A stretch of 64,000 nucleotides of DNA from Planctomycetota bacterium. GTDB lineage: Bacteria; Planctomycetota; UBA1135. The number at the start of each line of letters is the position of its first letter. Position 1 is the first letter of the stretch. This document shows, in pieces, positions 12,269 through 57,260 of the stretch. The notes under the pieces were generated by a model. The model was not told the DNA's origin. It made no database searches and saw only the letters and a list, made by a program, of their open reading frames with translations. Location: the NCBI GenBank assembly GCA_030748415.1, contig JASMMA010000003.1:81988-145987 (forward strand). The letters are read 5' to 3'. Position numbers and translations under genes: made by a program.

Positions 12269-13357
12269 TCACCGAGGCATTTCCTTTACATGCAGGTCAC
12301 GCTGCGGAAAGGGAATTTCAATTTTGTTCGCTTGAAGCTCAAGATACACCGAGCGGAGGAGAGCATCCAATGCTTGCCCGCGCAAGAGCGGTTCCGAAAT
12401 CCAGCAAAGAAGTTCGAAGTCAAGGCTGGACTCACCCAATGCACGGAATCTAACGCGGGGCTCAGGGTTGTTGCAGATTAGCTTTTCGTTTTTTGCAACG
12501 GACATGAGTACTTCTCGAACTTGATCTACATCGGAGCCATAGGCGACCCCAACTGGAACTCGCAGTCGCCGGCGCTGGCTGCCACCACCACTTTCGTTTG
12601 TGATGGTAGCGGAACCCATGACAGAATTCGGCACAGAAACCTCAATGTCGTCCCGAGTTAGAAGGCGCGTAGAGCGGAGCCCAATGTGGGTGACTTGGCC
12701 GCGTGTTCCATTATCTAAAACAATGAAATCTCCAACGCGGTAGGGGGCGTCAGCAATAATGAATACACCGGCGAATAGGTTGGCAAGAGTGTCTTGAGCG
12801 GCAAATCCAACCGCCATGGCCAATATTCCGGCAGATGCAAGCCAGCCGGTAGCATCTACATCCCAAATGGAAATAAGAACAAAAACCGCCAAACCAAAGA
12901 TGAGAAGCTTGGCAAGGTTGTCGAATAGGGGGAGCGTGGACTTTCCAACTGCCTTAAACCGGTCCTCCTGACAAGAGGCCGCGCCCAGGAGTAAACTACA
13001 TATTTTGGGAAGAGCGAACGCCCAAACCAAAAGGGCCAAAGATAAGAGTCCACGGACAGTTCCCTTTAGGGCAGCGTCCGCCAAATTGAGCCGGGTGGCT
13101 GATGCGGCAAGACCAAATAGAACAACTGTCTTCACGACGGGACCGTGAAGGAAGCCAATGACTTGGTCATCTAGAAGAGTTTTTGTTTTCCCAGCAAGCG
13201 CCTTCAGAGTAAGCCGAAGAATCCAACTCGATAACCATGCCGTAACGACTGAGAGAACAAAAAGAGTCCCGGCCTCAGCCCAGGGACCCTGGGGAAGGAA
13301 TTGCGGATAGGAGAAGTCGAGGCCGGGTGCGAGCGAGTCGCCTGTTTGTTGAATCAC
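12269..13357 (-). CDS. Mechanosensitive ion channel (MscS family)
   Basis: N-terminal TMs are followed by the MscS core LANLFAGVFIIADAPYRVGDFIVLDNGTRGQVTHIGLRSTRLLTRDDIEVSVPNS. Confidence 0.85.
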   Translation of the reverse strand: MIQQTGDSLAPGLDFSYPQFLPQGPWAEAGTLFVLSVVTAWLSSWILRLTLKALAGKTKTLLDDQVIGFLHGPVVKTVVLFGLAASATRLNLADAALKGTVRGLLSLALLVWAFALPKICSLLLGAASCQEDRFKAVGKSTLPLFDNLAKLLIFGLAVFVLISIWDVDATGWLASAGILAMAVGFAAQDTLANLFAGVFIIADAPYRVGDFIVLDNGTRGQVTHIGLRSTRLLTRDDIEVSVPNSVMGSATITNESGGGSQRRRLRVPVGVAYGSDVDQVREVLMSVAKNEKLICNNPEPRVRFRALGESSLDFELLCWISEPLLRGQALDALLRSVYLELQANKIEIPFPQRDLHVKEMPR

Positions 13358-14829
13358 TGAATCTGTTCGGTGTGGAGGTTAGAGCTGTCCCCTATTGTCA
13401 CAGCCTGCAACCAAACATCAAGCCCTGCGGCAGAAGCGGGAAGTTGCCTTGAAAAAGATGCTGTCCCAGAACCAGAAGTAATCACTTGAGCGATGATGTT
13501 GGGCGCATCAAGGCCGACAGTCGTCATCGCACCCGGTATTTGGTACACCGAAGAACCGGAAAGAGAGTTCGCGAACCAAACAACTTGCCCAGCAGTTCCG
13601 CCAGACAAGCTCAAAGTCGCCTGTGACCCTGCAACAAGCGGTGTAACACTTAAAACCAAATCCCCAGATAGGCCTGCCTGAACAGCCTTACGCAGATTCA
13701 CACGACCGTGGCCGTGAACATCGTCTTCGCCTGGCGCGCCGATGTCATCGCAAGATGCGTAGAGGCGAGCTTGAACTTGGTCCGGCGTAAACCATGGGTT
13801 GACAGCAAAAATCATGGCTGCAACACCATTTGCAACGGGTGTAGCCATGCTCGTACCACTCCAAGCTTGGTAACCACCACCAACAACGGTTGAAAGAATG
13901 CCGACTCCTGGGGACGCGACATCAATTGCCTTTCCGTAACTTGACCAGCTTGGTTTTTGGTCCGCAGAGTCCGTTGCACCAACAACAATCGTATCTGGAT
14001 AATCAAAGCTTGAGTGGTTCCGGCCTGAGTTATCGGCTGCATAAAAGAATAGGCCCCCTTTTAGCTTGATGTCTGTTCCAGTTGTTCCAACTGAAGAATT
14101 TTCGACTCCGCTATAGGAAGCGCTTACGGTCTTGGCTCCGTTATCGACGGCCCATCGGGCGCCATCAAGAATGTCTGACAAATAGGCTCCACCACTTGGT
14201 GAATTGCTAACCCTAACGGGCATTAGCTTCATGTTCCATGTAACGCCGGCAACGCCTACGCCATTATTGCCAATTGCGCCGAAACAACCTGCGACGTGTG
14301 TCCCATGACCATTAATGTCGCTTGTATCGCCACCATGAACCTCTTCAAGTTGGTCCGGTGCGTTGTAGCCGGGTATTAAATTGGCCGCTAAGTCAGGGTG
14401 TCCATGATCAACACCGGTATCGCACCAACTAATGATTTGGTTGGAGTCACCTGTGATTAAATCCCAACCTTGAGAAGACTCCATGTTTACATGGTGCCAC
14501 TGGTTTCCATACTCAGGGTCGTTTGGATCACCCAAAGGGAAGCAAAGCCAATCAGGCTCGACATACTCGTAATCACCTGTGGCCATCCAGGCTGCGGCGA
14601 GGGTGTTTTCAGTCATCCCTTCTGGAACTGAAACGACATATTCGCGAGTCTCAGGAAAGTGTCGAATAACCAAGTTGTCCAAGCGCGAAACTGCTGAAGC
14701 CGGGGCGTTTGAAACGGGCCTAACAATCATGCGGCCCGAAAATTCAAGCTCACCATGGCGTTCAATAAACTGGGTGGGAGTTGATTGTGCAGGAAAGGCG
14801 AACAGGATGAGGGGAATGAGGAGTTGCAT
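13354..14829 (-). CDS. Secreted S8 (subtilisin-like) serine peptidase with the shared C-terminal domain
   Basis: It has a signal peptide and the catalytic motifs DTGVD, HGTHVAG and GTSMATP. The last 105 aa or so match the shared CTD motif (LPASAAGLDVWLQAV). Confidence 0.9.
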   Translation of the reverse strand: MQLLIPLILFAFPAQSTPTQFIERHGELEFSGRMIVRPVSNAPASAVSRLDNLVIRHFPETREYVVSVPEGMTENTLAAAWMATGDYEYVEPDWLCFPLGDPNDPEYGNQWHHVNMESSQGWDLITGDSNQIISWCDTGVDHGHPDLAANLIPGYNAPDQLEEVHGGDTSDINGHGTHVAGCFGAIGNNGVGVAGVTWNMKLMPVRVSNSPSGGAYLSDILDGARWAVDNGAKTVSASYSGVENSSVGTTGTDIKLKGGLFFYAADNSGRNHSSFDYPDTIVVGATDSADQKPSWSSYGKAIDVASPGVGILSTVVGGGYQAWSGTSMATPVANGVAAMIFAVNPWFTPDQVQARLYASCDDIGAPGEDDVHGHGRVNLRKAVQAGLSGDLVLSVTPLVAGSQATLSLSGGTAGQVVWFANSLSGSSVYQIPGAMTTVGLDAPNIIAQVITSGSGTASFSRQLPASAAGLDVWLQAVTIGDSSNLHTEQIQ

Positions 14830-26846: not shown

Positions 26847-29800
26847 TCCCCATAAACCCTAACAAGGCCGTCTCTGCAGCCGGCTAGGAGAGAGTCTCCA
26901 TCTGGACTGAAATCCAGGCTGTAAACCCCCTTCCCGCCGGTTTTTAGGGTGTAAATCGGTCGCAGAGATTCCTGGTCTAGAAGCATAATCCGCCCTGAAT
27001 CATCCCCGAAAACCAAGCGGCTCTCTTGGGGATGGACTGCAAGGGAATAAATTGGGGAGTCCTGATTCCAAACCAACGGCTCGCCTGATGAGCCATCCCC
27101 TCCCCCTCTATTGCTGATTTGAAGCCTTGAGCCGTCCCACTCCCACCCGATAACCATACCATCCCAAAGAGAAGAGCAAAAAAGACGCCAGCCATGGGAG
27201 GAGCCAGAAGATGCATCAGGAACGAATCGAATGCAAGATATCCAGGATTGGTGACCGGGCTCCTCGGCAACTTGTTCCCATGTGGTGGTATCAAAAATCC
27301 TAAGTTTCTTATCCATGCCTCCACAGGCAAGCCATTGGCCTGATGGACTGAAGCGGACGGCACCCGTGTAAAACCTGGTCCCAGCTTGGGCCAAAAGTAT
27401 CTTGGGTATTTGGGAGTCACCTTGAACTACATTCCATACTCGCACCCGACCGTCCCCACAGGCAACAGCCAGCATGAGTTCTTTGTTGCCCGTCTTGGGG
27501 TCAAGGACATAAGAAAAATCCAAGTCCCAGGCCATTCTGGCAAGTTTGCTCTCCTTTCCATTATCTTCGCTCGGGAGTTCATTAACAAAATCGAATTGCT
27601 TGTCGTTCATCAAATCCCACACTCGAACTCCACCGTTATTTAGGGCCGCCGCCAAATAGTCCCCATCGGGAGAGTATTGAACCTTATATGCCGCACTATT
27701 GACAATGGACTCCGAATTTTTGTCGAATTTAAAGTATTTAAAGTCCTCCAAATCAAAGGAGTGCGGTTGTGATTTCGGAGCACTTTCGGGTTGCCATACA
27801 TCAACCATTCCACTAGATTTGGCGGAAGCAAAGCCGCCTTTCGGGTTATAAGCAACCCCAAATATTCTTACATCATTGTTGGCAATTTTCTCTTCGGGGA
27901 ATAGCTGAACACGCTGTTCACTTTCTGAATCCCAGAAAAGAACGGCGCCATCTTGGGAGCCCGAATAAACCCTGCCAGTTTTCTGAAATCCAAGACATAT
28001 CACAGGGCCTTGATGCCCTGTTAGGATTTTCCCTTGACCTAAACCAAATGTTGTCGGCTTAAACTCTCTTACCGAACCATCTTTGCATGCTGCATAAAGG
28101 CTGTTTGAGCTATGGGGTCGAACAAGAACCTCCATATCAAAAATGTTCTTGCCGCCGGAAGGAAATATTTCTTTGCGCCAAAATGGTTTGCTGTTCAATC
28201 CCAGATGTCTTACTGGGAAAAGAGAAAGGGTTCCTTCCTCATCAGCAACATAAAAGAACTCCTTATGTCCGAGGCTGCTGCCCTCAACAAAAGAAGAAAG
28301 CGCCGTTATTGGATAACTACTCGCCAGCCAAGCAACCGGCTGAGATGACGGTGTTTTCCAGAATAAGACCCTCCCGTCGCGCCCGGCAGTTAACAATGAG
28401 CCGGTGGGGGAAGCGCTTATCGAAGTCACCGGGCCAAAGTGATGAGCTTTGTCGTTACCAAAATATGGTGCTTTCATTGCTTTCGCAGGAGCACCCTTTG
28501 TAGGGAGTGTCACAAAATAAATGTCTCCAGCAATGGTTCCTGCAACAACTACACCGCTCTCTCCTTCTGGCTCCCAAAAGGCAAGCTGGCGAATCGCATG
28601 GGGTAATTGAATCTCGCCCAAATGTGTTGGGGGGGTGGTAGTTCGATCAAAAAATTTCACGCTCCCTTGTTTGGTTCCTGCGGCGATAAGGGTGTCCCAT
28701 GAAGAGCATGCCACAGAGGAAAAGCTGGCGCCGCTGGATTTAATCGTAACTTTAGTGCTTCCATCAAAACCACTAATAACAATATGGCTATCACCCAAAA
28801 TGCTGCAAATAAAACGGCCTTGTGAGGAAATCGCCATGGAACGAATGGGATTGGACGGGTTGCTTTCAATAAGAACACCTGCGGACAAATCAATTTGGCC
28901 CGAAAGGTGGTCCCACTCCCAGCCCCTGTGCTGTTGGGGGCATAATTCAAGCGCTTTGGCAGCATCAATGTATTGTTGGTCTTGGAACAACCAAAACGCA
29001 TCACGGAACTTGGCGTGATATTGTTCAAGCTCGGCTTCGTTCTTGGATTGAACTGCCCGATAACGAGCCCTCTCGGCTTCGTTCTTGGATTGAACCGCCC
29101 GATAACGAGCCCTCTCGGCTTCGTTCTTGGATTGAACTGCCCGATAACGAGCCCTCTCGGCATCTGCCCAAAACCAAGTAATCAATGCAATTGCGAATGA
29201 ACCCATTAGTAGCGATGCCGATTTGCCGGGGTTCCTTTGGGACCACTTGAGGGCTTTCTGAATCGCTCTGGGTGGCCGGGCAAAAATAGGTTCGTTTGCC
29301 AACCAGCGGCGCAAATCGGCTGCAAACTCTCCCATGGATTCGAATCGGTGACTTGGGTTCTTTTCGAGCGCTTTCAAACAAATAACTTCAAGTTCGCGAG
29401 GGACTTGTGAACGGAATTCGCGAATCGGAATCGGGTCTGCTTCACAAATCTTGCGACTGACTTGATCTCGTGTGTCCCCCTCAAATGGTGGACGAGATGT
29501 GAGGGCTTCGTAAAGAGTTGAGCCAAGCGAAAACTGGTCGCTTGCGGGACCAATATCACCAAGGTTTCCGCCCGCATGTTCTGGACTCATGTAATAAGGA
29601 GTTCCAGCTAAATCCTGACTCAGAGTCAGCGTCAGAGAGTGGTCCATTCGTGCTAAACCAAAGTCTGCCACTTTTGCAATTTCTCTATCTTGCAACAGGA
29701 TATTGGATGGCTTGATGTCTCGGTGGACAACTTTGAGGTCGTGAGCAACCTGCATAGCTTCACCGACTTGAGCAATGATGTCGGCAACCCATCGAAAATA

Positions 29801-30358
29801 CTCGGAGTCCACTTTTCCAGAATTCCGTCGGTCGGGAATGCACTCTGCAAGTGTTTCCCCATCGCCAACAAGTTCTTGTGCAATAAATCGCAAGCCGTTT
29901 TGTTCACCTGTGGCGTAAACCCGGACAAGGCCCTGATGATCCAGGTGCCCAGCGGAAATGGCCTCTCGGTGAAAGCGCTGAATTGCTTTCGGCGATACCG
30001 CAAGAAGCGGAGGCAGAATTTTTAAAGCAACATGTCGCTCTACAGATTTTTGTTGCGCTTCCCAAACCAACCCCATTCCTCCGCGGCCAATTTCTCGTAC
30101 TAACTCAAAGTCGCCGAGGATTCGGCCGGGCTGTAGGCCGCCATCTTCTTCGTTCAGCATATTGCACAAATCTTGGAAACCGTCAATCTTGGAAGCCAGT
30201 AGGGTCTGTATTAAATCGCCATGCTCCGCACAAAGAGTTGCAGCGGTTGTTGGGTCACCGGCCTGATAACTAGAAAGCCACTCTTGAAATAGTTTTTCCG
30301 CAGTTGTCTCTTCTTGGGTGGCGTTCGCAGGAAGATTCGGATTGGGAGTGTTTGGCAT
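26843..30358 (-). CDS. Ser/Thr protein kinase with a TM, a repeat stalk and a large WD40 beta-propeller region
   Basis: Kinase motifs are GRGGMGLVW, VALKIL, HRDIKPSNIL, DFGLA and SPEH. A TM (LLMGSFAIALITWFW) follows, then three copies of AERARYRAVQSKNE and about 700 aa of WD40-like repeats. Confidence 0.9.
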   Translation of the reverse strand: MPNTPNPNLPANATQEETTAEKLFQEWLSSYQAGDPTTAATLCAEHGDLIQTLLASKIDGFQDLCNMLNEEDGGLQPGRILGDFELVREIGRGGMGLVWEAQQKSVERHVALKILPPLLAVSPKAIQRFHREAISAGHLDHQGLVRVYATGEQNGLRFIAQELVGDGETLAECIPDRRNSGKVDSEYFRWVADIIAQVGEAMQVAHDLKVVHRDIKPSNILLQDREIAKVADFGLARMDHSLTLTLSQDLAGTPYYMSPEHAGGNLGDIGPASDQFSLGSTLYEALTSRPPFEGDTRDQVSRKICEADPIPIREFRSQVPRELEVICLKALEKNPSHRFESMGEFAADLRRWLANEPIFARPPRAIQKALKWSQRNPGKSASLLMGSFAIALITWFWADAERARYRAVQSKNEAERARYRAVQSKNEAERARYRAVQSKNEAELEQYHAKFRDAFWLFQDQQYIDAAKALELCPQQHRGWEWDHLSGQIDLSAGVLIESNPSNPIRSMAISSQGRFICSILGDSHIVISGFDGSTKVTIKSSGASFSSVACSSWDTLIAAGTKQGSVKFFDRTTTPPTHLGEIQLPHAIRQLAFWEPEGESGVVVAGTIAGDIYFVTLPTKGAPAKAMKAPYFGNDKAHHFGPVTSISASPTGSLLTAGRDGRVLFWKTPSSQPVAWLASSYPITALSSFVEGSSLGHKEFFYVADEEGTLSLFPVRHLGLNSKPFWRKEIFPSGGKNIFDMEVLVRPHSSNSLYAACKDGSVREFKPTTFGLGQGKILTGHQGPVICLGFQKTGRVYSGSQDGAVLFWDSESEQRVQLFPEEKIANNDVRIFGVAYNPKGGFASAKSSGMVDVWQPESAPKSQPHSFDLEDFKYFKFDKNSESIVNSAAYKVQYSPDGDYLAAALNNGGVRVWDLMNDKQFDFVNELPSEDNGKESKLARMAWDLDFSYVLDPKTGNKELMLAVACGDGRVRVWNVVQGDSQIPKILLAQAGTRFYTGAVRFSPSGQWLACGGMDKKLRIFDTTTWEQVAEEPGHQSWISCIRFVPDASSGSSHGWRLFCSSLWDGMVIGWEWDGSRLQISNRGGGDGSSGEPLVWNQDSPIYSLAVHPQESRLVFGDDSGRIMLLDQESLRPIYTLKTGGKGVYSLDFSPDGDSLLAGCRDGLVRVYGD
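29030..29161 (-). repeat. 42-bp tandem repeat x3.1 inside the kinase gene
   Basis: Units lie at 29030..29071, 29072..29113 and 29114..29155, followed by a 6-bp partial unit. There is one mismatch (t versus c in unit 2). The repeat is in frame and encodes (YRAVQSKNEAERAR)x3. Confidence 0.95.
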
Positions 30359-30488: not shown

Positions 30489-30565
<77 letters not shown>

Positions 30566-30578
30566 ACCCAGAATGTGC

Positions 30579-32744
30579 CTAGAACTGGTAGGCCCAAACA
30601 ATCTTGGCAGTTAAGTCTTCGCCCTGCCGGCGATAACCCCATCCGTAGTCGGTCATACCTGACTCAAGAGAAACGAAGACTTCGCGTTGGTCCATGCGAA
30701 TCCAGCGATACCGGCTTTGAAGCCCAATCATGGGAGCCGGGGCGCCGTCCTCGTCCACATTCCAAGCCTGGACAACGGTTTGCCAATATTGGGTGGGCGA
30801 GAAAAACCAATCAAAGGTTCCGCGCTCAAGGTTTGCCGTAAATTCGCCACCAGTGCTGGTTTCAATGAAGTGTCGTTGGATTTCAGCACCTATGCGAAGG
30901 CTCGGGCTTGGTCTCCATTCGCCACCGGCGCGAAGTGAGATAAGATCGCCGTTGTCATACCAACCACCAGCTGAAAGACCGGCAAAACCAGAAAGAGGGC
31001 GAGCGGGAGACGTTTCAGCCGTTGCGCCGAGCGAAATCCAATCATATTCACCAGCGGGAACTGCCATGCCAAGAACATTTTCTTGATCACTCAAGTTATC
31101 TCCTTCTAAATTAATCGTGCAAGACAAGAGGTCTCCGGCGTGGGTTTCTAACCCGAAAACTTCAAGCGGCACTTTGTAGTACTGAAGCGAGTTGTTCAAA
31201 CTTGTGTGAAGTTGAGCAGATGCGCCATAGCGGTAGTGCCGCACGATTTTATGGGCCTGGTGGGATTCAAAGAGGACCGATGCGCGGTGGATGTGGGCCG
31301 AGTTTTCTCGAACATATCCAAGGGCAGGTCGGAAACGAATCCCAATCGCGGTTGTTCCCAACGAACCAGAAAGGTGGTCTGTTTTAAAGTTCCCCTCAAT
31401 GCCCCAAGCATGGTCCCGTGAACCATTGGAGATGCTGTCGTCGTAGGCGCGCACCCCCCATGCGTTGAGTCCAACGGTGCCATCTAAGAGGGTGGAGTTT
31501 AAATAACGAGCATCAAAGCCAAGGGAAGATGCGTCGGTGGAATTCGCGGGGTCTCCGGTGGTAATTAGGGCGCCTACTCGGAGGTCCTGGCTTAGGTCTA
31601 GGGTGGGGCGGAAAACGGAGAAGGTGTCTGCGCCTTGGCTGACAGCCATTGCGCCCAAACTCCACGGACCACGGCGGCCGGTGACACGAGCGCCAGCATC
31701 AATGGAAACTTCGCTCCCATCCAAGAGGCCCATGCTCCGAGTATGAAATGGGCGAACATCTGGGTTGTCGCCCAAAGGGCCAAAATCAAAAAAGGATGAG
31801 CCTTCTAAGAAAAAGTCGCGCTTTTCTGGATATAGGTCGGGAAACCGACTTGTGTCGAGACGAACATAATCGACTTCTGTTTCGGAAAAGTCGGGATTCA
31901 AAGCTAAGCCGACCATCGTTTGGGAATCAAAACGCCAATCTAAATCAAGACCCATTTTCCCAAGGGTGCTTAGGTTCGTTTGCCAACCGCTGTCGAGAGC
32001 AATGTTGTGGTCAAGGGAGACGGATGCGTATGGGCGAACGCTTAAGCCGTGACCAGGAACAAGAAAATCAACTCCAGTGAGGCGACCCGCATAAGAAAGG
32101 TTTGTGATTTTTACACCGCGACTTGCGGCGGCCCAACGATCAATTGTCCGTTGGCCAGCACGATATCTTTGGATATTGAAACCCCAATCTTTAGTTGTGT
32201 CTGCAGAAAGAGTAGTGATGGGAATTGCAATTTCTGCCGACCAGCCATTTGCTCCTATCTTGGTTCGGGCCGCCCAGGTGCCATCCCATTGAGGGTCAAC
32301 TCGAAGGCCGTTAGCGGAAATCAAACTGTCTCTTTTGCCACCAGCAGCGCCCACCTCAAAGAGATAACCGCTTTGACCATCGCCCAAGGTATCCAAGACA
32401 ATGGAAATGTGGTCTTCGTGAGACAAGTCGCCATCACGCGCCATTTGACGAAGTGCAACATGGCGGCCATCGTCTTCGGAGCACAATACTCCGATATAAA
32501 GAGTTGTGGCTGTGCGGAGGAGTCGAACATGGGTTCCCCGCAGGGGGTCGTTTCCTTCAGCGGGCTCTACCATGGTGAAGGAATCGAGTTTGGTTGCATC
32601 ACGCCAAACAGAATCCAGGAGTACGCCATCAAGAGCGGGTGGGGTATCCGTAGGCGCAGGTGCAGTTGATGGAGTGTCTTGGCTCCAAAGGGCAGAAGTT
32701 GGAGCGACTATCAGAAGCAGAGCAGTTGTGAGGAGTGGGCGCAT
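30579..32744 (-). CDS. Secreted CBM9-like / DUF5916-type protein
   Basis: From ATG 32744 there is a signal peptide (MRPLLTTALLLIVAPTSALWS). The N-terminal pattern LDGVLLDSVWRDA..F..VEP..G....THVRLL....LYIGV and DPQWDGTWAA....NGWSAEIAIP is typical of the CBM9/DUF5916 family. The long beta-rich C-terminus ends in WAYQF. Confidence 0.55.
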   Translation of the reverse strand: MRPLLTTALLLIVAPTSALWSQDTPSTAPAPTDTPPALDGVLLDSVWRDATKLDSFTMVEPAEGNDPLRGTHVRLLRTATTLYIGVLCSEDDGRHVALRQMARDGDLSHEDHISIVLDTLGDGQSGYLFEVGAAGGKRDSLISANGLRVDPQWDGTWAARTKIGANGWSAEIAIPITTLSADTTKDWGFNIQRYRAGQRTIDRWAAASRGVKITNLSYAGRLTGVDFLVPGHGLSVRPYASVSLDHNIALDSGWQTNLSTLGKMGLDLDWRFDSQTMVGLALNPDFSETEVDYVRLDTSRFPDLYPEKRDFFLEGSSFFDFGPLGDNPDVRPFHTRSMGLLDGSEVSIDAGARVTGRRGPWSLGAMAVSQGADTFSVFRPTLDLSQDLRVGALITTGDPANSTDASSLGFDARYLNSTLLDGTVGLNAWGVRAYDDSISNGSRDHAWGIEGNFKTDHLSGSLGTTAIGIRFRPALGYVRENSAHIHRASVLFESHQAHKIVRHYRYGASAQLHTSLNNSLQYYKVPLEVFGLETHAGDLLSCTINLEGDNLSDQENVLGMAVPAGEYDWISLGATAETSPARPLSGFAGLSAGGWYDNGDLISLRAGGEWRPSPSLRIGAEIQRHFIETSTGGEFTANLERGTFDWFFSPTQYWQTVVQAWNVDEDGAPAPMIGLQSRYRWIRMDQREVFVSLESGMTDYGWGYRRQGEDLTAKIVWAYQF

Positions 32745-32815
32745 GTCGGGATGGTGACCTATTGGACAGGGCCAGAATAAGGTGGCGGGCAGAAACGCCA
32801 AATGCCCAGCAAAGC

Positions 32816-32851
32816 AAAAAAGCGGCCGCCCCTTAGGAGGGACGGCCGCTT
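32816..32851 (-). terminator. Rho-independent terminator of the metalloprotease gene
   Basis: On the minus strand the hairpin AAGCGGCCG-(14 nt)-CGGCCGCTT is followed by TTTTGC. Confidence 0.6.
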
Positions 32852-32869
32852 CAATTGGTTGGTTGGGGC

Positions 32870-34438
32870 CTAAAACTGCTCCGAAACCAAATTACTGAGC
32901 TTGCAGCTCGTTGTATCAACAAGCTGGATGTGGAAGGTTTTCCCTGCCGCTCCACTTGGGACCGATTTGGAAAAACTTCCTGTGCCAGCGGAATCAAAGG
33001 AAATCGTTCCCGCCACCTTTGGATTCCTTAGGCCTAGGAAAACCGAAGAGCAGGATGTGCTGGAGAAGCCTGTGCTGCCACTGTAGTAAAGGGTTCCTGA
33101 ACCATTAGCAGTGCCACCAGTCACCGTTAGGGTGTTCAGGGTACCCGCCGTTCCGGGGCTTGGATTGGTGATGGTCAAAGGACCTCCGCCGCCGCCTCCG
33201 CTGCAACCGGCATCCAGACAACTGCGAGAGTTTTTGTGGTTGTTGATGCTGTTGATGCTAGAACTTCCAAACTTGGAAACATTTCCAGAACAACCTCCAT
33301 TACAAGGGCACATGATGTGGCAAGAACCACAACCTGAACAACTGCTACAACAGTGGCCAGCGTTCCAGTTATGTCCAAGCTCATGCGCGGAAAGGCTCAC
33401 GCGGCGAGACATGTTGCTTGTGTAGCGAGACTGAACCATGGAGTAGCCGTAGTTGCTATTGCAAACAACACCAAGCCAAGCAATTCCGATTACAGAACCT
33501 GAAACGGACCTTCCCGTGAATAGCTGGGCAAAGTCGCGCTGGACGCTTCCCTGGTTGGAACGCCACTCTGCGCGGAACTGGTCCAGAAGAGTTCCCGGGT
33601 CATTGCTGGTATAGGGGTTGGAGCCGCTTGAGGTGCGAACAATGATCGTGGTGATGTCGTAACAAATGCCAACATCATTTTGGTAAATCACCTCAACATC
33701 ATTCATGACATCTTCAATATCCGCGATAGTGTTGTTGGAGTTGTTCCCATTCTTTTGGAAGAATTGGTAATCCGCATCAGCAGCAAACTCTACGGTCTTA
33801 TCGGCGCGTTGGTTTCCACTAAGGGAACCAGCACCCGTGTGTTGGTTATTGCCAGGGCCGGGAGCGTGTGCGCCACTATTGTTTCCACCACTAAATGGGG
33901 ACACAGGATCCGATTGATAGTTAGGTGGGAGCAAAGATTCTGCCATGACCCAATTGTCATCGGGAACCATGTCGGCAGTGTTGTAAATAACATGTACATC
34001 GGAAATGGCTGAGTTGTCAAAGTCGCTCAAGGGCTGAACCATCCGAACAGGAGAGCCGTCGCCCAAATCAATTCGGGCATGGAGACCATTCTTCCTTAAA
34101 GAGGCCGAAACGATGGAACCCGGGATGCCGGCGATCGCGCCGCGGTAAGTCCGGATTTCTGGAGTTTCGATTGCATAAAGCTTGCCATCTTCGCGTTGTT
34201 CATAAGCAACAAAGTTCTGGCTGCGAACGGAATACTTGTCTAGCAAGAGTTCGGTATCAAAGACCTCGTCGAGAACCAGGCGAACCTGAAAGTTCTCAAC
34301 GGGAGTTGCTGGGAGTTCCAGCGACTGAAGTGACCAAGCAAAGAAGCTCTCTTCAAGAGTTGTTGCAGAGTCGTTATTTGTGAGAGAAGCGGAAGAAAAG
34401 GCCAAAGGAATGGCCGCAATGAGGGAGAGAATGTTCAT
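32870..34438 (-). CDS. Secreted metzincin (reprolysin/M12B-like) zinc metalloprotease with a Cys-rich segment and the shared C-terminal domain
   Basis: It has a signal peptide, the zinc motif HELGHNWNAGH (HExxHxxGxxH) and a CHIM Met-turn-like motif within CCSSCSGCGSCHIMCPCNGGCSG. The C-terminal 105 aa or so carry VPSGAAGKTFHIQLV. Confidence 0.75.
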   Translation of the reverse strand: MNILSLIAAIPLAFSSASLTNNDSATTLEESFFAWSLQSLELPATPVENFQVRLVLDEVFDTELLLDKYSVRSQNFVAYEQREDGKLYAIETPEIRTYRGAIAGIPGSIVSASLRKNGLHARIDLGDGSPVRMVQPLSDFDNSAISDVHVIYNTADMVPDDNWVMAESLLPPNYQSDPVSPFSGGNNSGAHAPGPGNNQHTGAGSLSGNQRADKTVEFAADADYQFFQKNGNNSNNTIADIEDVMNDVEVIYQNDVGICYDITTIIVRTSSGSNPYTSNDPGTLLDQFRAEWRSNQGSVQRDFAQLFTGRSVSGSVIGIAWLGVVCNSNYGYSMVQSRYTSNMSRRVSLSAHELGHNWNAGHCCSSCSGCGSCHIMCPCNGGCSGNVSKFGSSSINSINNHKNSRSCLDAGCSGGGGGGPLTITNPSPGTAGTLNTLTVTGGTANGSGTLYYSGSTGFSSTSCSSVFLGLRNPKVAGTISFDSAGTGSFSKSVPSGAAGKTFHIQLVDTTSCKLSNLVSEQF

Positions 34439-36773: not shown

Positions 36774-36812
36774 GCGCCATCCGTCCCTCAGGGCGGGTGG
36801 CGCAATTTTTTT
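36774..36812 (+). terminator. Rho-independent terminator after the cytochrome gene
   Basis: GCGCCATCCGTCCC-TCA-GGGCGGGTGGCGC forms a 13-bp stem including G-U pairs. AATTTTTTT follows and overlaps the glgP stop codon. Confidence 0.65.
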
Positions 36813-38895
36813 ACTTGTTCAAATGAGCGGGCAAGTAGTATCTGTGCAGGTAATCGGACAGCATGCGGTCCGCGCGGAATTGACTGGGCACTGTTTGAAT
36901 TGAGTTGCGCATCCGGCGAACCCATCCATGGGGTATTCCATCTCGACCAGTTTTATGAAAAAGAGGAATCACCTCATTCTCAAGTAGTTCGTAAAGCGAT
37001 TCGGCATCCGAAGTGTCTTGTCGAGCTCTTGATTTAAATTCAATTCCATTCCCAATTGCCCACCCATTCTTTTTGTTCCAGGCTTCCGGCCACCAGCCGT
37101 CCAATATTGACAGATTGAGGCCGCCGTGGAGCGTGGGTTTCATTCCCGAAGTGCCGCTAGCCTCATGGGGGCGAAGGGGAGTGTTCAGCCACACATCACA
37201 ACCGCTCGTTAACATCCGACCAATTCGCATGTCGTAGTCCTCCAGAAGAACGACGCGACCGCGGAGGGCCATTCGTTGAGTCATTTTAAATATTTTCTGG
37301 GCATAGGCTTGACCATCTTTGTCATCCGGGTGTGCCTTCCCAGCGAAAACGAATTGAACGGGGCAATTAACATCAGACATCATTCTTTCCAGACGTTTAA
37401 TGTCCTTAAAAAGAAGAGGGGCCCTTTTGTAGGTCGCAAAGCGGCGGGCAAACCCAATGGTGAGGGCATCCTCCTCTAAGACTTGTTGAGCTTTGGAGAT
37501 TTCCGATGCAGTTGCGCCTCGGCGAATCGCTTGGTCCGCGTTCATTTTCCGCACAAAATGGACAAGCTCCGAACGCAACGTTGTGCGAAGGTCCCAAAGG
37601 TCGCCATCGCTTAACTTGTCTGTTCGTTTCCACAAGTTTTCATCTGGGGAATCTTTGGACCAATCCACACGGAGCTTCTTCCGATAGAATTCTTCCGTTG
37701 TGGATGAGAGCCAGGTTCGCATATGGACGCCGTTTGTCACATGACCAATGGGGACCTCTTCCGGTGATGGTGCGTCGTACACCTTTTGCCACATCTCACG
37801 AGACACTACACCGTGGAGAGCAGAAACTCCATTGACTTGGTTGGCTGTATTTAGCGCCAATACAGTCATGCACAAAACAGGCTCCTTTTTCGTGGGCTCC
37901 TGCGGGTTTTCATCTCCAAGAGCTGCCAGCCTTTTCGCGTTCAATTCCGCTCCACGCAAAACAGGGCGCAACCATTTGCTTGCAAGCTTAACGGGATAGC
38001 GGTCGTGGCCCGCAGGAACAGGGGTGTGGGTTGTAAACACCGTGCTCTTTTTGATTTTTGAAAGACATTCGTTCCGTCGCATGCGCTCAAGCTGAACGAA
38101 GGCCGCGTGCCCTTCGTTTAAGTGAAAAACTGTTGGTTTTTCACCGAGAGCATCCAGTGCCATCAAACCGCCTACACCTAAAAGGATTTGTTGTCGAAGA
38201 CGGTCCTCGGGAGAACCGCGATACAAACCAGCAGTTAGCGCACGATCCTCAGGGCGGTTCTTTTCGAGGTCGGCATCGAGTAAATAAAGAGGGACACGGC
38301 CAACCTGAAGCTGCCAAACTTTTGCCCAAACCGTGCGGGTTCCCATTGGACAAGCAATCTCCTTGCCTGTGTCTTGAAGTGGCCAAACATTCCAACAAAA
38401 CTCCGGGTAAAGAGCGCGAGTGGCGCCATCGGACTGAAACTCTTGTCGGTAGTATCCGTGCCGATAAAGAAGGCCAACGCCGAGTAATGGGATGCCGAGG
38501 TCGCTTGCAGTTTTTAGATGGTCGCCGGCCAAAACGCCGAGGCCACCCGCGTATTGAGGCATGCTTTCGTGAAGTGCGAACTCCGAGCAAAAATATGCCA
38601 CACGCAAACGCCGCTCTTTAGCTGTAGATGATTTTGAAAACCATGTTTTTGCTTTGGCGTACTCGCGAAGATTTTTTTCAACATTAGAAAGCCGAGACAG
38701 GAAGCTCTTGTCTGTTGAAAGGGCTTCCATTCGAGCTGGCGAGCCAACTTCCAGAACAATGGCCGGGTTGTGATTGCTGGCCTCCCAAAGCACCGGGTCA
38801 ATCTCGGCATACAGGGCTTGAGCGGAGTGGTTCCATGTCCACCAAAGATTTTGATGGATGGATTTGAGGCGTTCCTTCAGTTTTTCTGGGTTCAT
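36811..38895 (-). CDS. glgP: Alpha-glucan (glycogen/maltodextrin) phosphorylase, GT35
   Basis: Typical alpha-glucan phosphorylase signatures are AYFCSEFALHESMPQYAGGLGVLAGDH and the PLP-lysine region EASGTSGMKPTLHGGLNLSILDGWW. Confidence 0.9.
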   Translation of the reverse strand: MNPEKLKERLKSIHQNLWWTWNHSAQALYAEIDPVLWEASNHNPAIVLEVGSPARMEALSTDKSFLSRLSNVEKNLREYAKAKTWFSKSSTAKERRLRVAYFCSEFALHESMPQYAGGLGVLAGDHLKTASDLGIPLLGVGLLYRHGYYRQEFQSDGATRALYPEFCWNVWPLQDTGKEIACPMGTRTVWAKVWQLQVGRVPLYLLDADLEKNRPEDRALTAGLYRGSPEDRLRQQILLGVGGLMALDALGEKPTVFHLNEGHAAFVQLERMRRNECLSKIKKSTVFTTHTPVPAGHDRYPVKLASKWLRPVLRGAELNAKRLAALGDENPQEPTKKEPVLCMTVLALNTANQVNGVSALHGVVSREMWQKVYDAPSPEEVPIGHVTNGVHMRTWLSSTTEEFYRKKLRVDWSKDSPDENLWKRTDKLSDGDLWDLRTTLRSELVHFVRKMNADQAIRRGATASEISKAQQVLEEDALTIGFARRFATYKRAPLLFKDIKRLERMMSDVNCPVQFVFAGKAHPDDKDGQAYAQKIFKMTQRMALRGRVVLLEDYDMRIGRMLTSGCDVWLNTPLRPHEASGTSGMKPTLHGGLNLSILDGWWPEAWNKKNGWAIGNGIEFKSRARQDTSDAESLYELLENEVIPLFHKTGRDGIPHGWVRRMRNSIQTVPSQFRADRMLSDYLHRYYLPAHLNK

Positions 38896-38907
38896 TTTTG
38901 TCTCGCC

Positions 38908-42350: not shown

Positions 42351-42389
42351 AGGCTACGGTGGGGTTTTGTATTTTATCCCCATCTTTCA

Positions 42390-46641: not shown

Positions 46642-46676
46642 AAAAAGAGGGCGGGTTGCGAACCGCAACACGCCCT
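46640..46676 (-). terminator. Rho-independent terminator of the paralog gene 46693..47730
   Basis: On the minus strand AGGGCGTGTTGCG-GTT-CGCAACCCGCCCT (12 of 13 bp paired) is followed by TTTTTTT. Confidence 0.6.
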
Positions 46677-46692
46677 ATGAGGACTGCTTATT

Positions 46693-47730
46693 TTATTGAA
46701 CCGTTACAACCAATGAATTGGCTAAGCTTCCTGTGCCGGGTCCGGTTATCTCAACGCATTGTGAGTAAACGGTTAGGCCAGCAGCAGCAGGCGGGATGTT
46801 GGTTAGAAAATGAACCTCACCATTTGGGTCAACTGTTTGGGTAGGAAATTGACTGATGGGCGGAGTCATATCCACATCACCGAACATGGTTTGAGTAGGG
46901 CCCGAGCCCGTCAAAGAGTAGCCAATGATGACATTGTTACCAGGGGTGCAATTCGTAACATCAAAACTACCCTGCTGGCCAGCAATAATGTTGCTTGTGG
47001 AGTAAATCGGCCGCCATGGTGGGGCCGAAATTTTTATGGAATCAAAGTCAAAACCAACATCGAGGGGGTCGAAGCCGTGGCCAGATTTGAGCTGAAGTTC
47101 ATTAAAACGAAAGTCACCAAACCAAACCTCTAGGTCTGGTGTGCTTGTTGGGTAATCCACTGGAGGGTCAATCCAAAGCTTTGCAACTTCATCGCCAGGC
47201 AAGAAGTCAACTCGTACAACCAAGCGAGCGAGAGTGTCACAATGGGTACCTGGAACATAGTAAGGGAGATTACCTTGCCATGGTTGATCCAAACCCCATT
47301 CATACTGGTCAAATGGACTTCCAATCAATAGGCCTTCCATGTTCCACTGCCAGTTCAAGGTCAGTGCCCCATACTCATCGTCACTTGAGCGTTGGCAGTC
47401 AAAGTGAACCCAAATTTCAGTGCCGTCAGCGCCGATGGCGCCCTGGTCAACGATGGCATCTAGGCCATTCAAATCAATCAAGCGGTAAGAGCCGCCATGA
47501 TCGAGGTTGGTGGACATCATGCCGCCGATGGGGTCGAAACCGGGAGTCGAAACAATGCCCTCGTCCATGTTGTTGCCACTCCACCAGTCAGCTTGGAAGC
47601 CGACACCGCCGGCCATGCCGCCAAGATTACCGGCAGGGTAGTCAAAGGACTCAAAACAAATGGTCTCGTAGTTTTGGGCGGCTGCGGGAGCTGCCAACAA
47701 AACGAGAATGGGAAGGAGAGAAGTTTTCAT
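46693..47730 (-). CDS. Secreted protein of unknown function, paralog 1 (N-terminal lectin-like module plus shared C-terminal domain)
   Basis: It has a signal peptide and the motifs ESFDYPAGNLGGMAGGVGFQADWWSG and DHGGSYRLID. The C-terminal domain carries IPPAAAGLTVYSQCV. By eye it is about half identical to the adjacent gene. Confidence 0.7.
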   Translation of the reverse strand: MKTSLLPILVLLAAPAAAQNYETICFESFDYPAGNLGGMAGGVGFQADWWSGNNMDEGIVSTPGFDPIGGMMSTNLDHGGSYRLIDLNGLDAIVDQGAIGADGTEIWVHFDCQRSSDDEYGALTLNWQWNMEGLLIGSPFDQYEWGLDQPWQGNLPYYVPGTHCDTLARLVVRVDFLPGDEVAKLWIDPPVDYPTSTPDLEVWFGDFRFNELQLKSGHGFDPLDVGFDFDSIKISAPPWRPIYSTSNIIAGQQGSFDVTNCTPGNNVIIGYSLTGSGPTQTMFGDVDMTPPISQFPTQTVDPNGEVHFLTNIPPAAAGLTVYSQCVEITGPGTGSLANSLVVTVQ

Positions 47731-47745
47731 GAATCAGAATGGGGA

Positions 47746-48777
47746 TTAGGGGATGTTTACAACAAGAGAGTTACTGAGGTTGCCAAGTCCGCCGCCGAGA
47801 ATCTCAACTGATTGGGTATAGACGGTTGCGCCTGCTAGGCTAGGTGGAACAGGTGCGCTAAAGGAAGCAATCCCACTTGTGTTTGCTACAAGGGTTGGAA
47901 GTTGACTGATGGGTGGAGTCATGTCCACATCACCAAACATTGTTGTTGTTGGGCCAGGGCCTGTTAAGGAGTAGCCGATGATGACTGAGCTTCCAGGGCT
48001 TACATTTGAAACCTCAAAGTCTGCAACCGAGCCAACAATTGCATTATTCACAATGTAAATGGGCCGGAAAGCTGGAGTATCAATGGCTATTCCGTCGAAA
48101 CTAAATCCGGGCGCTGTTCCGTCTCCTGACTGAAGTCGAATCTCGTTAAAACGAAAGTCTGCAACCATCACATCCAGGTCGGCAGCAGTTGTTGGGTGGT
48201 CTGTGGGGGGGTTGAGCCAAAATTGAACGCGTTCATCGCCCGGAAGAAAGTCAATCCGGTAAACCATCGTGTTCAAAAGAGCATCATCTGAACCAGGGAC
48301 AACATCGTGGGTGGGTGCGCCGGTCCGTGCGAAGCCAACCTCATTGGTTCCCCAGGGGCTTCCGAGGAAGACTTGCTCCCCAACCCACTGCCAGTTCAAA
48401 GAAAGCCCACCGTAAAGGTGGTCGCACATGGTTTCTTTTTTCATCATGAAACCAATCCAGATGGTGGTGTTATCGGCACCAAGTTGCCCGCCATCCAAGA
48501 TGGGGCCCAGTGAAGAGCGGTCAATAAGGCGGTAGGAGCCGCCGTGGTCCACACCGACTTCCATGCGTTGCCCAATGGGGTCGTAACTCGAGCCAACAAC
48601 GAAACCGTCACTGAGTGAGGAGCCAGACCACCATTCGTTTTCCCATCCGAAGCCACCATTAAGGCCGCCAAGGGGGCCAGCGGCGTAGTCAAAAGACTCG
48701 TCGGCAATGGGTTCGTATGTTTGAGAAAATGCGGGGGAAGAAAGGAGGGGAAGAAGGAGGGGAAGAAGAATCTTCAT
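47746..48777 (-). CDS. Secreted protein of unknown function, paralog 2
   Basis: It has a signal peptide and the motifs ESFDYAAGPLGGLNGGFGWENEWWSG and DHGGSYRLID. The C-terminal domain carries VPPSLAGATVYTQSV. Confidence 0.7.
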   Translation of the reverse strand: MKILLPLLLPLLSSPAFSQTYEPIADESFDYAAGPLGGLNGGFGWENEWWSGSSLSDGFVVGSSYDPIGQRMEVGVDHGGSYRLIDRSSLGPILDGGQLGADNTTIWIGFMMKKETMCDHLYGGLSLNWQWVGEQVFLGSPWGTNEVGFARTGAPTHDVVPGSDDALLNTMVYRIDFLPGDERVQFWLNPPTDHPTTAADLDVMVADFRFNEIRLQSGDGTAPGFSFDGIAIDTPAFRPIYIVNNAIVGSVADFEVSNVSPGSSVIIGYSLTGPGPTTTMFGDVDMTPPISQLPTLVANTSGIASFSAPVPPSLAGATVYTQSVEILGGGLGNLSNSLVVNIP

Positions 48778-48788
48778 GGCACTATTGT

Positions 48789-54860: not shown

Positions 54861-57260
54861 ATGCTGCAACTTCTCCTACTTCCCCTCCTGCTCTCCCCTC
54901 AAGGCTCTCTTTCTTCCGGCCCAGACAACTTTGTGGTTAAGCCCGAACTTCGCGAGGTCATTCGAGTTGCCCCCCTTGAACACCATCGCGCCTACATTGT
55001 TATGACTGAGCAACCCGATGCGGCTGCTCTGCGCGAACAATTCGCCCACCTTCCGCGAGGCGAACGCCAACTTGCCCTTTCGAGCGAACTTCGTTCCTTC
55101 TCAGAGATCTCTCAAGCCGCTTTACGCGAAGCCGCCTCTCTTCTCGCGTCCCAGGGTCATATCTCATGGTCTGAACCGCTTTGGATTGCAAACAGCTTCC
55201 GCGTTGAAGCCGACGCAATCGCTTTTGAAACTTTAGCCGCAATTCCTGGTGTTTCTTATATTCAATACGACCCCATACGAGATCCAATGGAAATGCAAGA
55301 CATTCCATTGAGCGTTGCTATCCAACAGCGCGCAGCCGCAGGTACCTCGAACGGAAATGGTCGGGCGACAACTTATTACTTTGAAGACTTTGAATCTGGT
55401 TCTCTTGGCCCCGAATGGGCCACAACAACAACTGCATGTGGGCGGGAACAAATTACATCTTCGTTCGGTCCTTTCGCGGGGAACAAACACTGGGTCTGCG
55501 ACAGCTCCTCAAATGGCTGCTACAGCACAGTTACTTTGACTTTAACTGTTGACCTTTCTTCTCAATCTACTGTCAAGCTTCAATACGCGTTTAAAGATTT
55601 GAATGACGAGTTCAATAATGGCTCAGATATTCTTGAGGCATCTGATGATGGTGGAGCAACATGGAAAAAGATTGCTGACTTGACCGGAAGCAACAACTCA
55701 TATCTCTTAATGGCTCACGACCTTGATACTTTGGGTCTGAATTATGTTTCCAACTTTATGATTCGTTGGTCTTGGTACGACAACTACGGCGCCGACACCG
55801 ACGGTTTCGCATTTGACAATATTGAGCTTGCAGATTACTTCCCGCCACCGCCGCCGCCATCTCCCGAACCAAACCTTGTTAAGCACCAAGCTCCAGACCT
55901 CTGGGGGATTGGTATCGACGGAAGCGGGGCCGTTCTTCTGAACATTGACTCGGGAACGGATCGCAGCCACCCTGACCTTGCAAACCGAATCTGGACCAAC
56001 CCCAACGACCCCGTTGATGGCGTGGACAATGACGGAAACGGTTATGTGGATGACTATTGGGGTTGGAATTTCTCCAGCAACAACAACAATCCGAGTGGTG
56101 GCGGCCACGGCACCAGCACCGCCGGAATCATGGTTGGTGATGGCGCCGGTGGGGTTCGCCAAACCGGCATGGCTCCAGGTGCAAGTCTTGCTGTTTGCCA
56201 ACTCGGCAGTGAAGCTGATCATTGGGGCGCCCTTCAGTGGGGCCTTTCAGTTGCTGTGGACTGCTCTTCCTCTTCTTACTCCTACAAGTGGCCCTTCTCG
56301 CCACGCCCGGACTACCACCAACATCGCGCGGTTTCTGAAATGGTGTTGGCTGGTGGTCAAATCCATTGCAACTCCATTGGAAACCAAGGGGGCTCCTCCA
56401 GCTACCCCATCCCCTTTAATATCTCTGCCCCTGGCAATGTGCCTGGGCCTTGGGTTCATCCCCAGCAAGTTGATGGCGGCATTGCGGCAGTTCTTGGTTG
56501 CTGTGGAATCCGCGTGGGCGACGAAACCTACTACGACCCAAGTGGCCGAGGTCCCGCAGCTTGGGAAGACATCAAAATCTATGATTCCAGCTATCCCCAT
56601 AACCAAAACCAAAGTTATTGGGATTACCCGGCAGGCGGGTGGAACCTTCCACAAGCAGGGTTACTGAAACCGGACATCGCTGGATATACCGATGGCTGTT
56701 ACACCACATCCGATGGCGGAGGTCACTCCACTTTTAGTGGGACCTCTTGTGCAACTCCCCATATCGGTGGCTCTACTGCCCTCATGATCTCTGCAAATCC
56801 GCACGCTGAGCCTCGTCACATTAGTGCCGCCTTGCAACTGGCCGCTCTAGATAAAGGCGCTACTGGAAAAGATGCTTATTGGGGTTCAGGCGTTGCAAAG
56901 GTTTACGACGCAGCAATGCGCCTGATTCACCTTGCCGTCCCTGACCAGCAAACTGCCTCCCTTGGCTCAACTGTAAACATCAACATGAGTGGCCCGGCCG
57001 GTGCCACATATGGGTTGTTCTATTCGCTTTCCTTGGGCACCACTACGCTTCCCGGAATTGGTGACCTAGATTTGGCAAATGGCGTTCTCATAAAAGTTGC
57101 GAACTTGAATGCCGCGGGTCAGTCCACATTTGTTGGCGTTGTTCCAAACAACCCACTTCTTGTAGGCCAAACAATCTACATTCAATCTGTTTGTAACGAC
57201 TTGGCCGGAGCCACTGGCCAAGCTCTCTTCTCTTTAGTCGAGCAGGTCGAAATTCAATAA
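54861..57260 (+). CDS. Secreted S8 serine peptidase with the shared C-terminal domain
   Basis: ATG 54861 gives the signal peptide MLQLLLLPLLLSP. The triad contexts are DSGTDRSHPDL, GHGTSTAG and GTSCATPHIGG. The C-terminus carries VPNNPLLVGQTIYIQSV. The track start at 54612 would overlap selU. Confidence 0.88.
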   Translation: MLQLLLLPLLLSPQGSLSSGPDNFVVKPELREVIRVAPLEHHRAYIVMTEQPDAAALREQFAHLPRGERQLALSSELRSFSEISQAALREAASLLASQGHISWSEPLWIANSFRVEADAIAFETLAAIPGVSYIQYDPIRDPMEMQDIPLSVAIQQRAAAGTSNGNGRATTYYFEDFESGSLGPEWATTTTACGREQITSSFGPFAGNKHWVCDSSSNGCYSTVTLTLTVDLSSQSTVKLQYAFKDLNDEFNNGSDILEASDDGGATWKKIADLTGSNNSYLLMAHDLDTLGLNYVSNFMIRWSWYDNYGADTDGFAFDNIELADYFPPPPPPSPEPNLVKHQAPDLWGIGIDGSGAVLLNIDSGTDRSHPDLANRIWTNPNDPVDGVDNDGNGYVDDYWGWNFSSNNNNPSGGGHGTSTAGIMVGDGAGGVRQTGMAPGASLAVCQLGSEADHWGALQWGLSVAVDCSSSSYSYKWPFSPRPDYHQHRAVSEMVLAGGQIHCNSIGNQGGSSSYPIPFNISAPGNVPGPWVHPQQVDGGIAAVLGCCGIRVGDETYYDPSGRGPAAWEDIKIYDSSYPHNQNQSYWDYPAGGWNLPQAGLLKPDIAGYTDGCYTTSDGGGHSTFSGTSCATPHIGGSTALMISANPHAEPRHISAALQLAALDKGATGKDAYWGSGVAKVYDAAMRLIHLAVPDQQTASLGSTVNINMSGPAGATYGLFYSLSLGTTTLPGIGDLDLANGVLIKVANLNAAGQSTFVGVVPNNPLLVGQTIYIQSVCNDLAGATGQALFSLVEQVEIQ

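Follow-up and report, generated by a model that had tools for sequence, protein, structure and literature searches.

Five proteins with a common C-terminal domain

Five secreted proteins encoded in a 64-kb stretch of contig JASMMA010000003.1 from a Planctomycetota bacterium (the window) end in domains of about 105 residues that are homologous by profile tests and are referred to here as C-terminal domains (CTDs). The five copies are members of one previously uncatalogued, lineage-restricted domain family that is absent from Pfam and NCBIfam. One is carried by a 522-aa metzincin of the M12B (reprolysin-like) type, encoded on the minus strand at 32870-34438. The Pfam model Reprolysin_5 covers only residues 213-383 of this protein, and its CTD (32873..33187) follows a GGGGGG linker and represents a variant with a covarying pair of cysteines. 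S8 protease A (S8A; 13354-14829, minus strand) is matched by Peptidase_S8 only at residues 129-375 and has its CTD at residues 387-491 (13357..13671). In S8 protease B (S8B; 54861-57260, plus strand), Peptidase_S8 covers residues 358-676, and the CTD (56943..57257) is the most divergent of the copies.

The other two proteins, unkA (46693-47730) and unkB (47746-48777), are encoded on the minus strand and match no Pfam family. Each consists of a signal peptide, an N-terminal domain and a CTD, which is located at 46696..47010 in unkA and at 47749..48063 in unkB. The N-terminal domain is lectin-like in unkA and has a ConA-like lectin/glucanase fold in unkB. A full-length AlphaFold2 model of unkB, with a predicted local distance difference test (pLDDT) score of 81.8, yields Foldseek matches to legume lectins, a sialidase lectin domain and GH131.

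Two starts can be drawn for the S8B gene. A longer in-frame open reading frame (ORF) delimited mechanically begins at 54612 and overlaps the 5' end of a rhodanese-domain gene on the opposite strand (53624-54763). The true start is likely to be 54861, because the signal-peptide-like sequence MLQLLLLPLLLSPQ begins there. A close partial homologue (P0005) comes from a Planctomycetota metagenome-assembled genome (MAG).

The last ~105 residues of all five proteins can be aligned, and eight columns are invariant (G, S, G, F, P, G, Q and V). Identity between the CTDs of one genome is low (20-35%), and pairwise BLAST comparisons among the window copies are weak except for the unkA/unkB pair, whose CTDs are 58% identical. 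The late block, [LVI]P-x3-[AL/V]G-x2-[VIF]-[WYH]-x-Q-x-V, and the terminal SN...[IV]-Q pattern that the original prediction picked out by eye correspond to the family consensus VPxxAxGxTVxxQA...LSNSLAxxI[QLG]. No sixth copy was found within the window.

Statistical support for homology

Profile hidden Markov models (HMMs) were searched against the 649 six-frame ORFs of the window. When each member was left out of the model in turn, it was recovered every time as the best match outside the training set. The E values obtained in this way are 4.6e-7 for the metzincin, 2e-7 for S8A, and 4.5e-7 and 1.4e-6 for the unkA/unkB pair, but only 0.049 for S8B. A second model was built from 70 non-window sequences and includes no window copy. 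It ranks the five CTDs first among the window ORFs (unkA, 7e-36; unkB, 2e-34; S8A, 1e-17; metzincin, 1e-13; S8B, 3.6e-4), and the next ORF scores 0.64. Alignment of single CTDs to the external alignment with hhalign gives probabilities of 99.9, 99.9, 99.1, 98.2 and 83.1%, the last two for the metzincin and S8B, compared with 0.1-0.2% for shuffled controls.

Taken together, these statistics rule out chance or low-complexity similarity of the protein tails. On the profile evidence, membership of the metzincin, S8A, unkA and unkB in the family is beyond doubt, and S8B is supported as a divergent member. The prediction that five window proteins share a C-terminal domain is thereby borne out: the ORFs exist as described, and the alignment has statistical support for every one of them, weakest for S8B.

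Fold, composition and disulfide

AlphaFold2 models the CTD of S8A, from a 75-sequence alignment, as a seven-strand β-sandwich of the immunoglobulin (Ig)-like class (pLDDT 95.3; predicted template-modelling score, pTM, 0.86). Foldseek searches of the PDB with this model return generic Ig-like sandwiches only. Enediyne chromoprotein apoproteins are the best of these, followed by macroglobulin domains, and the list also includes the N-terminal domain of a β-glucan recognition protein (3aqx). Structure prediction, which had been suggested as a check, therefore places the domain in a generic fold class and provides no close structural relative.

The domain is nearly devoid of charged residues. Lys, Arg, Asp and Glu make up 0.4, 1.3, 3.4 and 1.6% of CTD residues, compared with 4.3, 6.8, 5.6 and 7.1% in the cytoplasmic proteins of the window, and individual CTDs hold zero to four Lys and zero or one Arg. 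That this near-absence of charge is kept across the family suggests a specific environment or partner.

A covarying cysteine pair is present in 22 of 155 domains (~15%), including that of the window metzincin. It joins the β3-β4 loop to the β6-β7 connection, in a segment just before the LSNSL motif. Both cysteines occur together in 22 of 23 cases, and the loop cysteine is never found alone. Such strict covariation implies a disulfide, and hence folding outside the cytoplasm. A second, looser cysteine pair (alignment columns 38 and 130) includes unkA.

Family size and position of the domain

Searched exhaustively with HMMER, a set of 1.84 billion cluster representatives yields 2,427 members of the family at E<=1e-3 and 513 at E<=1e-10. 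Word-indexed protein searches with CTD alignments gave five matches and then one. Of the 152 best matches, 146 have the domain at their extreme C-terminus, and 137 end with its last residue. The final residue of these proteins is mostly Q, L or G. The same placement is seen in genomic DNA. In 646 kb of sequence, comprising 64 loci from the genome scan described below and two loci obtained earlier, nearly all of it MAG DNA, the domain forms the end of the protein in 106 of 108 domain-bearing ORFs.

Lineage and genomic neighborhoods

One genome from each of 185,579 prokaryotic species was scanned with a single narrow peptide pattern, GYSL[TAS]G[APS]GP[TIF]. All of the 64 confirmed loci reside in MAGs. 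Planctomycetota or Planctomycetales is the label of nearly all of them; a few carry only 'uncultured bacterium', and one MAG with two loci is labelled Myxococcota. The taxonomic range obtained in this way is a lower bound because only one narrow pattern was used. Copies are numerous and often clustered, as judged from the five in the 64-kb window, the 108 ORFs in the 646 kb of loci, and the up to nine seeded loci in one MAG. The literature searched contained no account of a domain of this kind in Planctomycetota.

The window itself is syntenic with MAG UBA7888 at ~75% nucleotide identity and, more distantly, with another MAG, and a portion of its sequence shows full identity to a contig from JGI metagenome 3300035204. 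Named relatives among the 120 best matches to the PurF protein of the window are all from Planctomycetota-labelled MAGs, and none is from a cultured organism. Orthologues in UBA7888 retain the CTD at 72-83% identity, compared with 84-90% for the attached passenger regions.

One block of genes is conserved around CTD proteins in seven to eight MAGs. It encodes an Na+/H+ antiporter, a class II aminoacyl-tRNA synthetase, an NTP transferase and an aminotransferase, together with four unannotated ORFs. None of these is sortase-like or secretin-like. At one such locus (L011, 6394-10897) and the syntenic loci L012, L017 and L018, four ORFs of 265, 463, 499 and 315 aa without a Pfam match lie beside a CTD protein, an arrangement seen in seven to eight MAGs. 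In two MAGs, the ~460-aa protein of this four-ORF block itself bears a CTD.

Passengers and signal peptides

The proteins to which the domain is attached were surveyed by Pfam and NCBIfam scans of 119 full-length relatives. FG-GAP/VCBS is the commonest Pfam family (FG-GAP in 17 of 119), and Big_9/cadherin-like domains, C-type lectins, right-handed β-helices, reprolysin, S8, CBM96, BNR, DM13 and metallophosphatase also occur. More than 20 passenger types carry the domain, and they are mutually unrelated. Among NCBIfam models, choice-of-anchor J (NF038128) is found in 13 of the 119 relatives, and others resemble 'myxosortase-dependent' and 'T9SS-dependent' enzymes, the latter named after type IX secretion systems (T9SS). 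The 'choice-of-anchor' label is given to domains that are seen with alternative anchors, namely LPXTG, PEP-CTERM or T9SS. Matches to GldK/GldJ models most likely arise because three relatives carry an FGE-sulfatase domain, which is also detected by Pfam.

The domain itself is not matched by any of these models. No Pfam model hits the CTD at E<=1 in the five window proteins and none covers the tail in the 119 relatives. NCBIfam models are equally absent from the last ~105 residues of the five proteins and from the domain in the relatives. For PKD, FN3, Big_x, CARDB, FlgD_ig and PPC there is no Pfam match over the CTD, and the FG-GAP, Big_9 and cadherin matches sit in the passengers. The earlier impression that this is not one of the catalogued C-terminal domains thus holds for the relatives as well as for the window.

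Signal peptides are found on most full-length family members. In most of these, and in most signal-peptide proteins of the window, a Gln follows the predicted signal peptidase I site, as in AAA/QNYE, AFS/QTYE, LSA/QVSS, LWS/QDTP, FPA/QSTP, LSP/QGS and ILP/QERP (the slash marks the site). When judged by a crude rule, a -3/-1 site with Gln after it is present in 70 of the 95 signal-peptide-like proteins of the family, compared with a background Gln frequency of 3.2%. N-termini with this pattern in the window are those of the proteins encoded at 46693-47730, 47746-48777, 48789-50963, 30579-32801, 13354-14829, 54861-57260, 21716-23449 and 16581-17672; family members between P0006 and P0152 show it also. 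The metzincin is an exception. At the level of sequence, these signal peptides resemble those following the Q-rule of Bacteroidetes, for which an average Q-value of 71% is reported; values are low in Chlamydiae and Spirochaetes, and Planctomycetes were outside that analysis (PMC5837995).

Functional interpretation

The domain is terminal, sits on diverse exported passengers, occurs on many cargoes per genome, is restricted to one lineage, and joins passengers that use other anchors elsewhere. This combination is the signature of a sorting or retention tag, and for this reason a sorting/anchoring role is favored as a plausible reading and the best available one. More specifically, there is in our estimation about an even chance that the CTD is a folded C-terminal targeting or retention module recognized by a lineage-specific partner. 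In such a scheme, the protein would be exported by the Sec pathway, its signal peptide would be removed, and the domain would fold as a sandwich outside the cytoplasm. Recognition of the folded sandwich would then fall to the partner, which might be a translocon of the outer membrane, or else a receptor or polymer at the cell surface. Passengers as different as proteases, lectin-like glycan binders, adhesin repeats of the FG-GAP/cadherin type, β-helix proteins and phosphatases would in this manner be delivered to, or held at, the cell surface.

A more ambitious proposal can be made from the same observations. The domain could mark cargo for an as yet undescribed pathway of outer-membrane secretion or surface attachment. 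It would then be an independently evolved functional analogue of the T9SS CTD, paired with a Bacteroidetes-like Gln/pyroglutamate rule at the N-terminus, and each genome would encode a surface proteome of several tens of such proteins or more. This is put forward tentatively, as a serious possibility rather than as an expectation.

Several observations weigh against a sorting role. The chief argument against a strict C-terminal secretion signal is the existence of copies in other positions. In four of the 152 best matches, the domain is located at the N-terminus of the mature protein; in P0070, P0089 and P0110 it comes straight after the signal peptide and precedes an FGE-sulfatase domain, and in P0101 other domains follow. 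Five further matches (P0062, P0076, P0083, P0121 and P0138) contain two or three tandem copies, which in P0076 and P0138 at least are of the cysteine-containing subtype. The sequence context of P0138 and of the N-terminal example P0089 gives no hint as to taxonomy or function. The N-terminal and tandem copies show that the domain does not need a free C-terminus, and this in turn moves weight from a translocation signal towards an anchoring or binding module. In addition, no conserved linker or cleavage motif emerges from the residue composition of the 15 positions upstream of the domain, with poly-Gly in a subset only. Conservation is spread over Gly/Pro turns, loops and strands β3 and β6, and a single obvious patch is not seen.

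The search for machinery in the surroundings of these genes adds to the same side. When 1,079 ORFs from 66 loci were clustered all against all, no non-syntenic neighbor recurred. Conserved neighbors were considered as machinery candidates and discarded, as the clusters consist only of antisense shadow ORFs and syntenic housekeeping blocks. Within the window, the export-related genes among 35 Pfam-covered ORFs are those for signal peptidase I and SppA only, with several ORFs lying outside the scan. The original proposal of a sorting or anchoring tag is accordingly upheld in part. Modularity, restriction to one lineage, C-terminal placement, signal peptides and passenger diversity all agree with it; the failure to find a sortase-like or translocon partner or a cleavage motif, together with the N-terminal and tandem copies, does not.

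The domain might instead be a non-catalytic module, similar to a carbohydrate-binding module (CBM) or an adhesin, that attaches secreted proteins to something outside the cell, for example marine particles, polysaccharide or the surface of prey, rather than to the envelope of the producing cell, without any dedicated sorting machinery. An Ig-like sandwich with conserved aromatic positions (GYSL and [YW]xQ) would suit such a role, and N-terminal or tandem placement is also found in CBMs. Its presence on proteases and the proximity of window copies to genes for glycan-active enzymes point the same way, as do the nearest structures, which are ligand-binding sandwiches (the enediyne apoproteins), with 3aqx also on the list. 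We nevertheless regard this explanation as rather doubtful. The position of the domain is far stricter than that of typical CBMs, with 137 of 152 copies ending exactly at the C-terminus. Many of the passengers are already binding or adhesin modules (lectins, FG-GAP, cadherin-like and choice-of-anchor J domains) and rarely bear CBMs. Neither the five window CTDs nor those of the 119 relatives match a Pfam CBM family, and confinement to a single lineage would be unusual for a substrate binder.

Alternatively, the domain could be a structural Ig-like appendage, that is, a spacer or an aid to folding or stability comparable to the P-domain or PPC domain of proteases, whose C-terminal bias reflects a history of domain shuffling. 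The generic fold and the lack of a close structural relative would be expected of such an element. So would conservation that falls mainly on Gly/Pro turns and core strands, the lack of a visible cleavage motif, and the somewhat faster evolution of the CTD relative to its passengers between orthologues. This explanation appears unlikely, as a terminal spacer has nothing to space. Stabilizing domains are passenger-specific, whereas this one module is found on more than 20 unrelated types of passenger, mostly as a single copy and last, and its near-charge-free composition again suggests a specific environment or partner.

The alpha-glucan locus and other window features

The genes for unkA and unkB lie in an alpha-glucan utilization locus (36811-50963). 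This locus encodes a glucan phosphorylase (36811-38895), a GH77 4-alpha-glucanotransferase (38908-39984), a GH13 enzyme with a CBM48 domain (39981-42350), a sugar importer composed of a fused solute-binding/permease ABC transporter protein, a permease and an ATPase (42291-46641), and a signal-peptide-bearing GH13/CBM48 enzyme (48789-50963), directly downstream of which unkA and unkB are found. An ArsR-type regulator with a CBM48-like domain is encoded nearby (51253-52116). A surface-displayed glycan binder makes sense for unkA and unkB because of their lectin fold and their place in this locus, and these proteins may be its surface glucan binders. The earlier guess that they bind glycans fits both the ConA-like fold of the N-terminal domain and the genomic position.

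The metzincin gene is located 68 bp upstream, on the same strand, of a gene for a 740-aa protein with CBM9-like and DUF5916 regions (the pair spans 30579-34438). We take DUF5916 to be an outer-membrane barrel family. This gene pair is kept in MAG UBA7888 (L003, 7512-11580), where it adjoins the unkA/unkB block rather than lying 12 kb away. A tRNA-Arg(CCG) gene is present at 30489-30565. A large Ser/Thr protein kinase of 825 aa with TPR repeats is encoded at 5968-8445, and another, of 1,171 aa and with WD40 repeats, at 26843-30358; a TSP3-repeat protein (25716-26846) is found downstream of the WD40-repeat kinase.

Significance of the family

Outer-membrane transport and surface display in Planctomycetota are poorly understood, and the clade concerned here is mostly marine and without cultured representatives. 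With over 2,400 clusters, the family offers a sequence handle for predicting the surface and secreted proteome of abundant ocean bacteria, and a starting point for phylogenetic profiling towards the machinery responsible. A new Pfam or NCBIfam entry would also improve the annotation of thousands of proteins that are now 'hypothetical' or annotated by their passengers only. Should a dedicated pathway exist, folded Ig-like domains would have become C-terminal secretion signals on a second, independent occasion in evolution.

Comparison with known systems

In short C-terminal sorting signals, a motif is followed by a hydrophobic helix and a basic tail, all within ~20-35 residues. The CTD is comparable to those of the PEP-CTERM/exosortase, LPXTG/sortase, MYXO-CTERM and GlyGly-CTERM/rhombosortase systems in being a lineage-restricted C-terminal mark on diverse surface proteins, and choice-of-anchor J domains and M36-like peptidases are passengers common to both. 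It is not itself a signal of the PEP-CTERM, LPXTG, MYXO-CTERM or GlyGly-CTERM kind: its C-terminus is a β-strand of a 100-residue folded domain almost without Lys or Arg, and no NCBIfam model matches it.

Like dockerins and CBMs, the CTD is a non-catalytic module that occurs on many secreted proteins, presumably binds a partner, and is occasionally placed in tandem or at the N-terminus. It differs from them in fold and in its lack of any Pfam dockerin or CBM match. Its passengers, moreover, are mostly non-enzymatic adhesin-like repeats rather than carbohydrate-active enzymes.

Enediyne apoproteins, including those of C-1027 (CagA), neocarzinostatin, actinoxanthin and macromomycin, are the best match both by sequence profile and by structure. 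These proteins are stand-alone secreted ligand carriers from actinomycete antibiotic clusters. They share with the CTD a seven-strand Ig-like sandwich of ~110 residues and the pattern L-x-x-GQ-x-[AV]-x-[LV]-x-VSGA ... TDASG-x-ASFS. The profile match to 1hzk_A has an E value of 0.04 (range for PDB profiles 0.04-0.3), and Foldseek returns 1j48_A (C-1027) at 8e-4 and 1nco (neocarzinostatin) with a TM score of 0.60. This likeness is marginal, with TM scores of 0.5-0.6 and root-mean-square deviations of 4-7 Å, and no Pfam match is listed. Since the CTD is also a terminal module of larger proteins, membership in the neocarzinostatin family was rejected, and any kinship is at most remote and within the Ig-like superfold.

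The closest parallel is with T9SS cargo. Similar to type-A T9SS CTDs (TIGR04183/Por_Secre_tail), the domain is a seven-strand Ig-like sandwich of comparable size at the extreme C-terminus of Sec-exported proteins. The two are also alike in the great diversity of their passengers, in having many cargoes in each genome with low identity to one another, and in signal peptides that expose a Gln. Differences include a Planctomycetota-labelled host outside the Fibrobacteres-Chlorobi-Bacteroidetes (FCB) group, the near-uncharged composition, and rare N-terminal and tandem copies; we know of no T9SS CTD reported at an N-terminus or in tandem. Comparison by hhalign of the 75-sequence CTD alignment with a small alignment of genuine type-A T9SS CTDs gives a probability of 0.35%. 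TIGR04183, TIGR04131 and Por_Secre_tail have no match at E<=1 on the five window proteins and are absent from the top families of the 119 relatives, and the 50 best Foldseek matches include no solved T9SS CTD. Within the Pfam-covered window ORFs and one conserved neighborhood, to which this search extended, the T9SS components SprA, PorV, PorU and GldKLMN were not found.

T9SS CTDs are described as folded Ig-like 3+4 sandwiches of 70-100 aa that have very low sequence identity and are recognized as structures, and T9SS genes are reported from FCB phyla only (PMC11285876). That the domain is a very divergent T9SS CTD, from hosts with a bona fide or derived T9SS whose Planctomycetota label masks this or is wrong, is very improbable: size, fold class, terminal position, the near-absence of sequence conservation among T9SS CTDs and the Gln-exposing signal peptides of the Bacteroidetes Q-rule (PMC5837995) would allow it, but the profile and Foldseek comparisons, the N-terminal and tandem copies, and the Planctomycetota affiliation given by PurF and the MAG labels, set against a system confined to FCB (PMC11285876), all oppose it. 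What the comparison does provide is an analogy in mode of action. The domain family described here appears to share the logic of the T9SS CTD without belonging to that family, and it probably represents a further form of sorting by folded C-terminal domains, in a phylum from which no such domain had been known.

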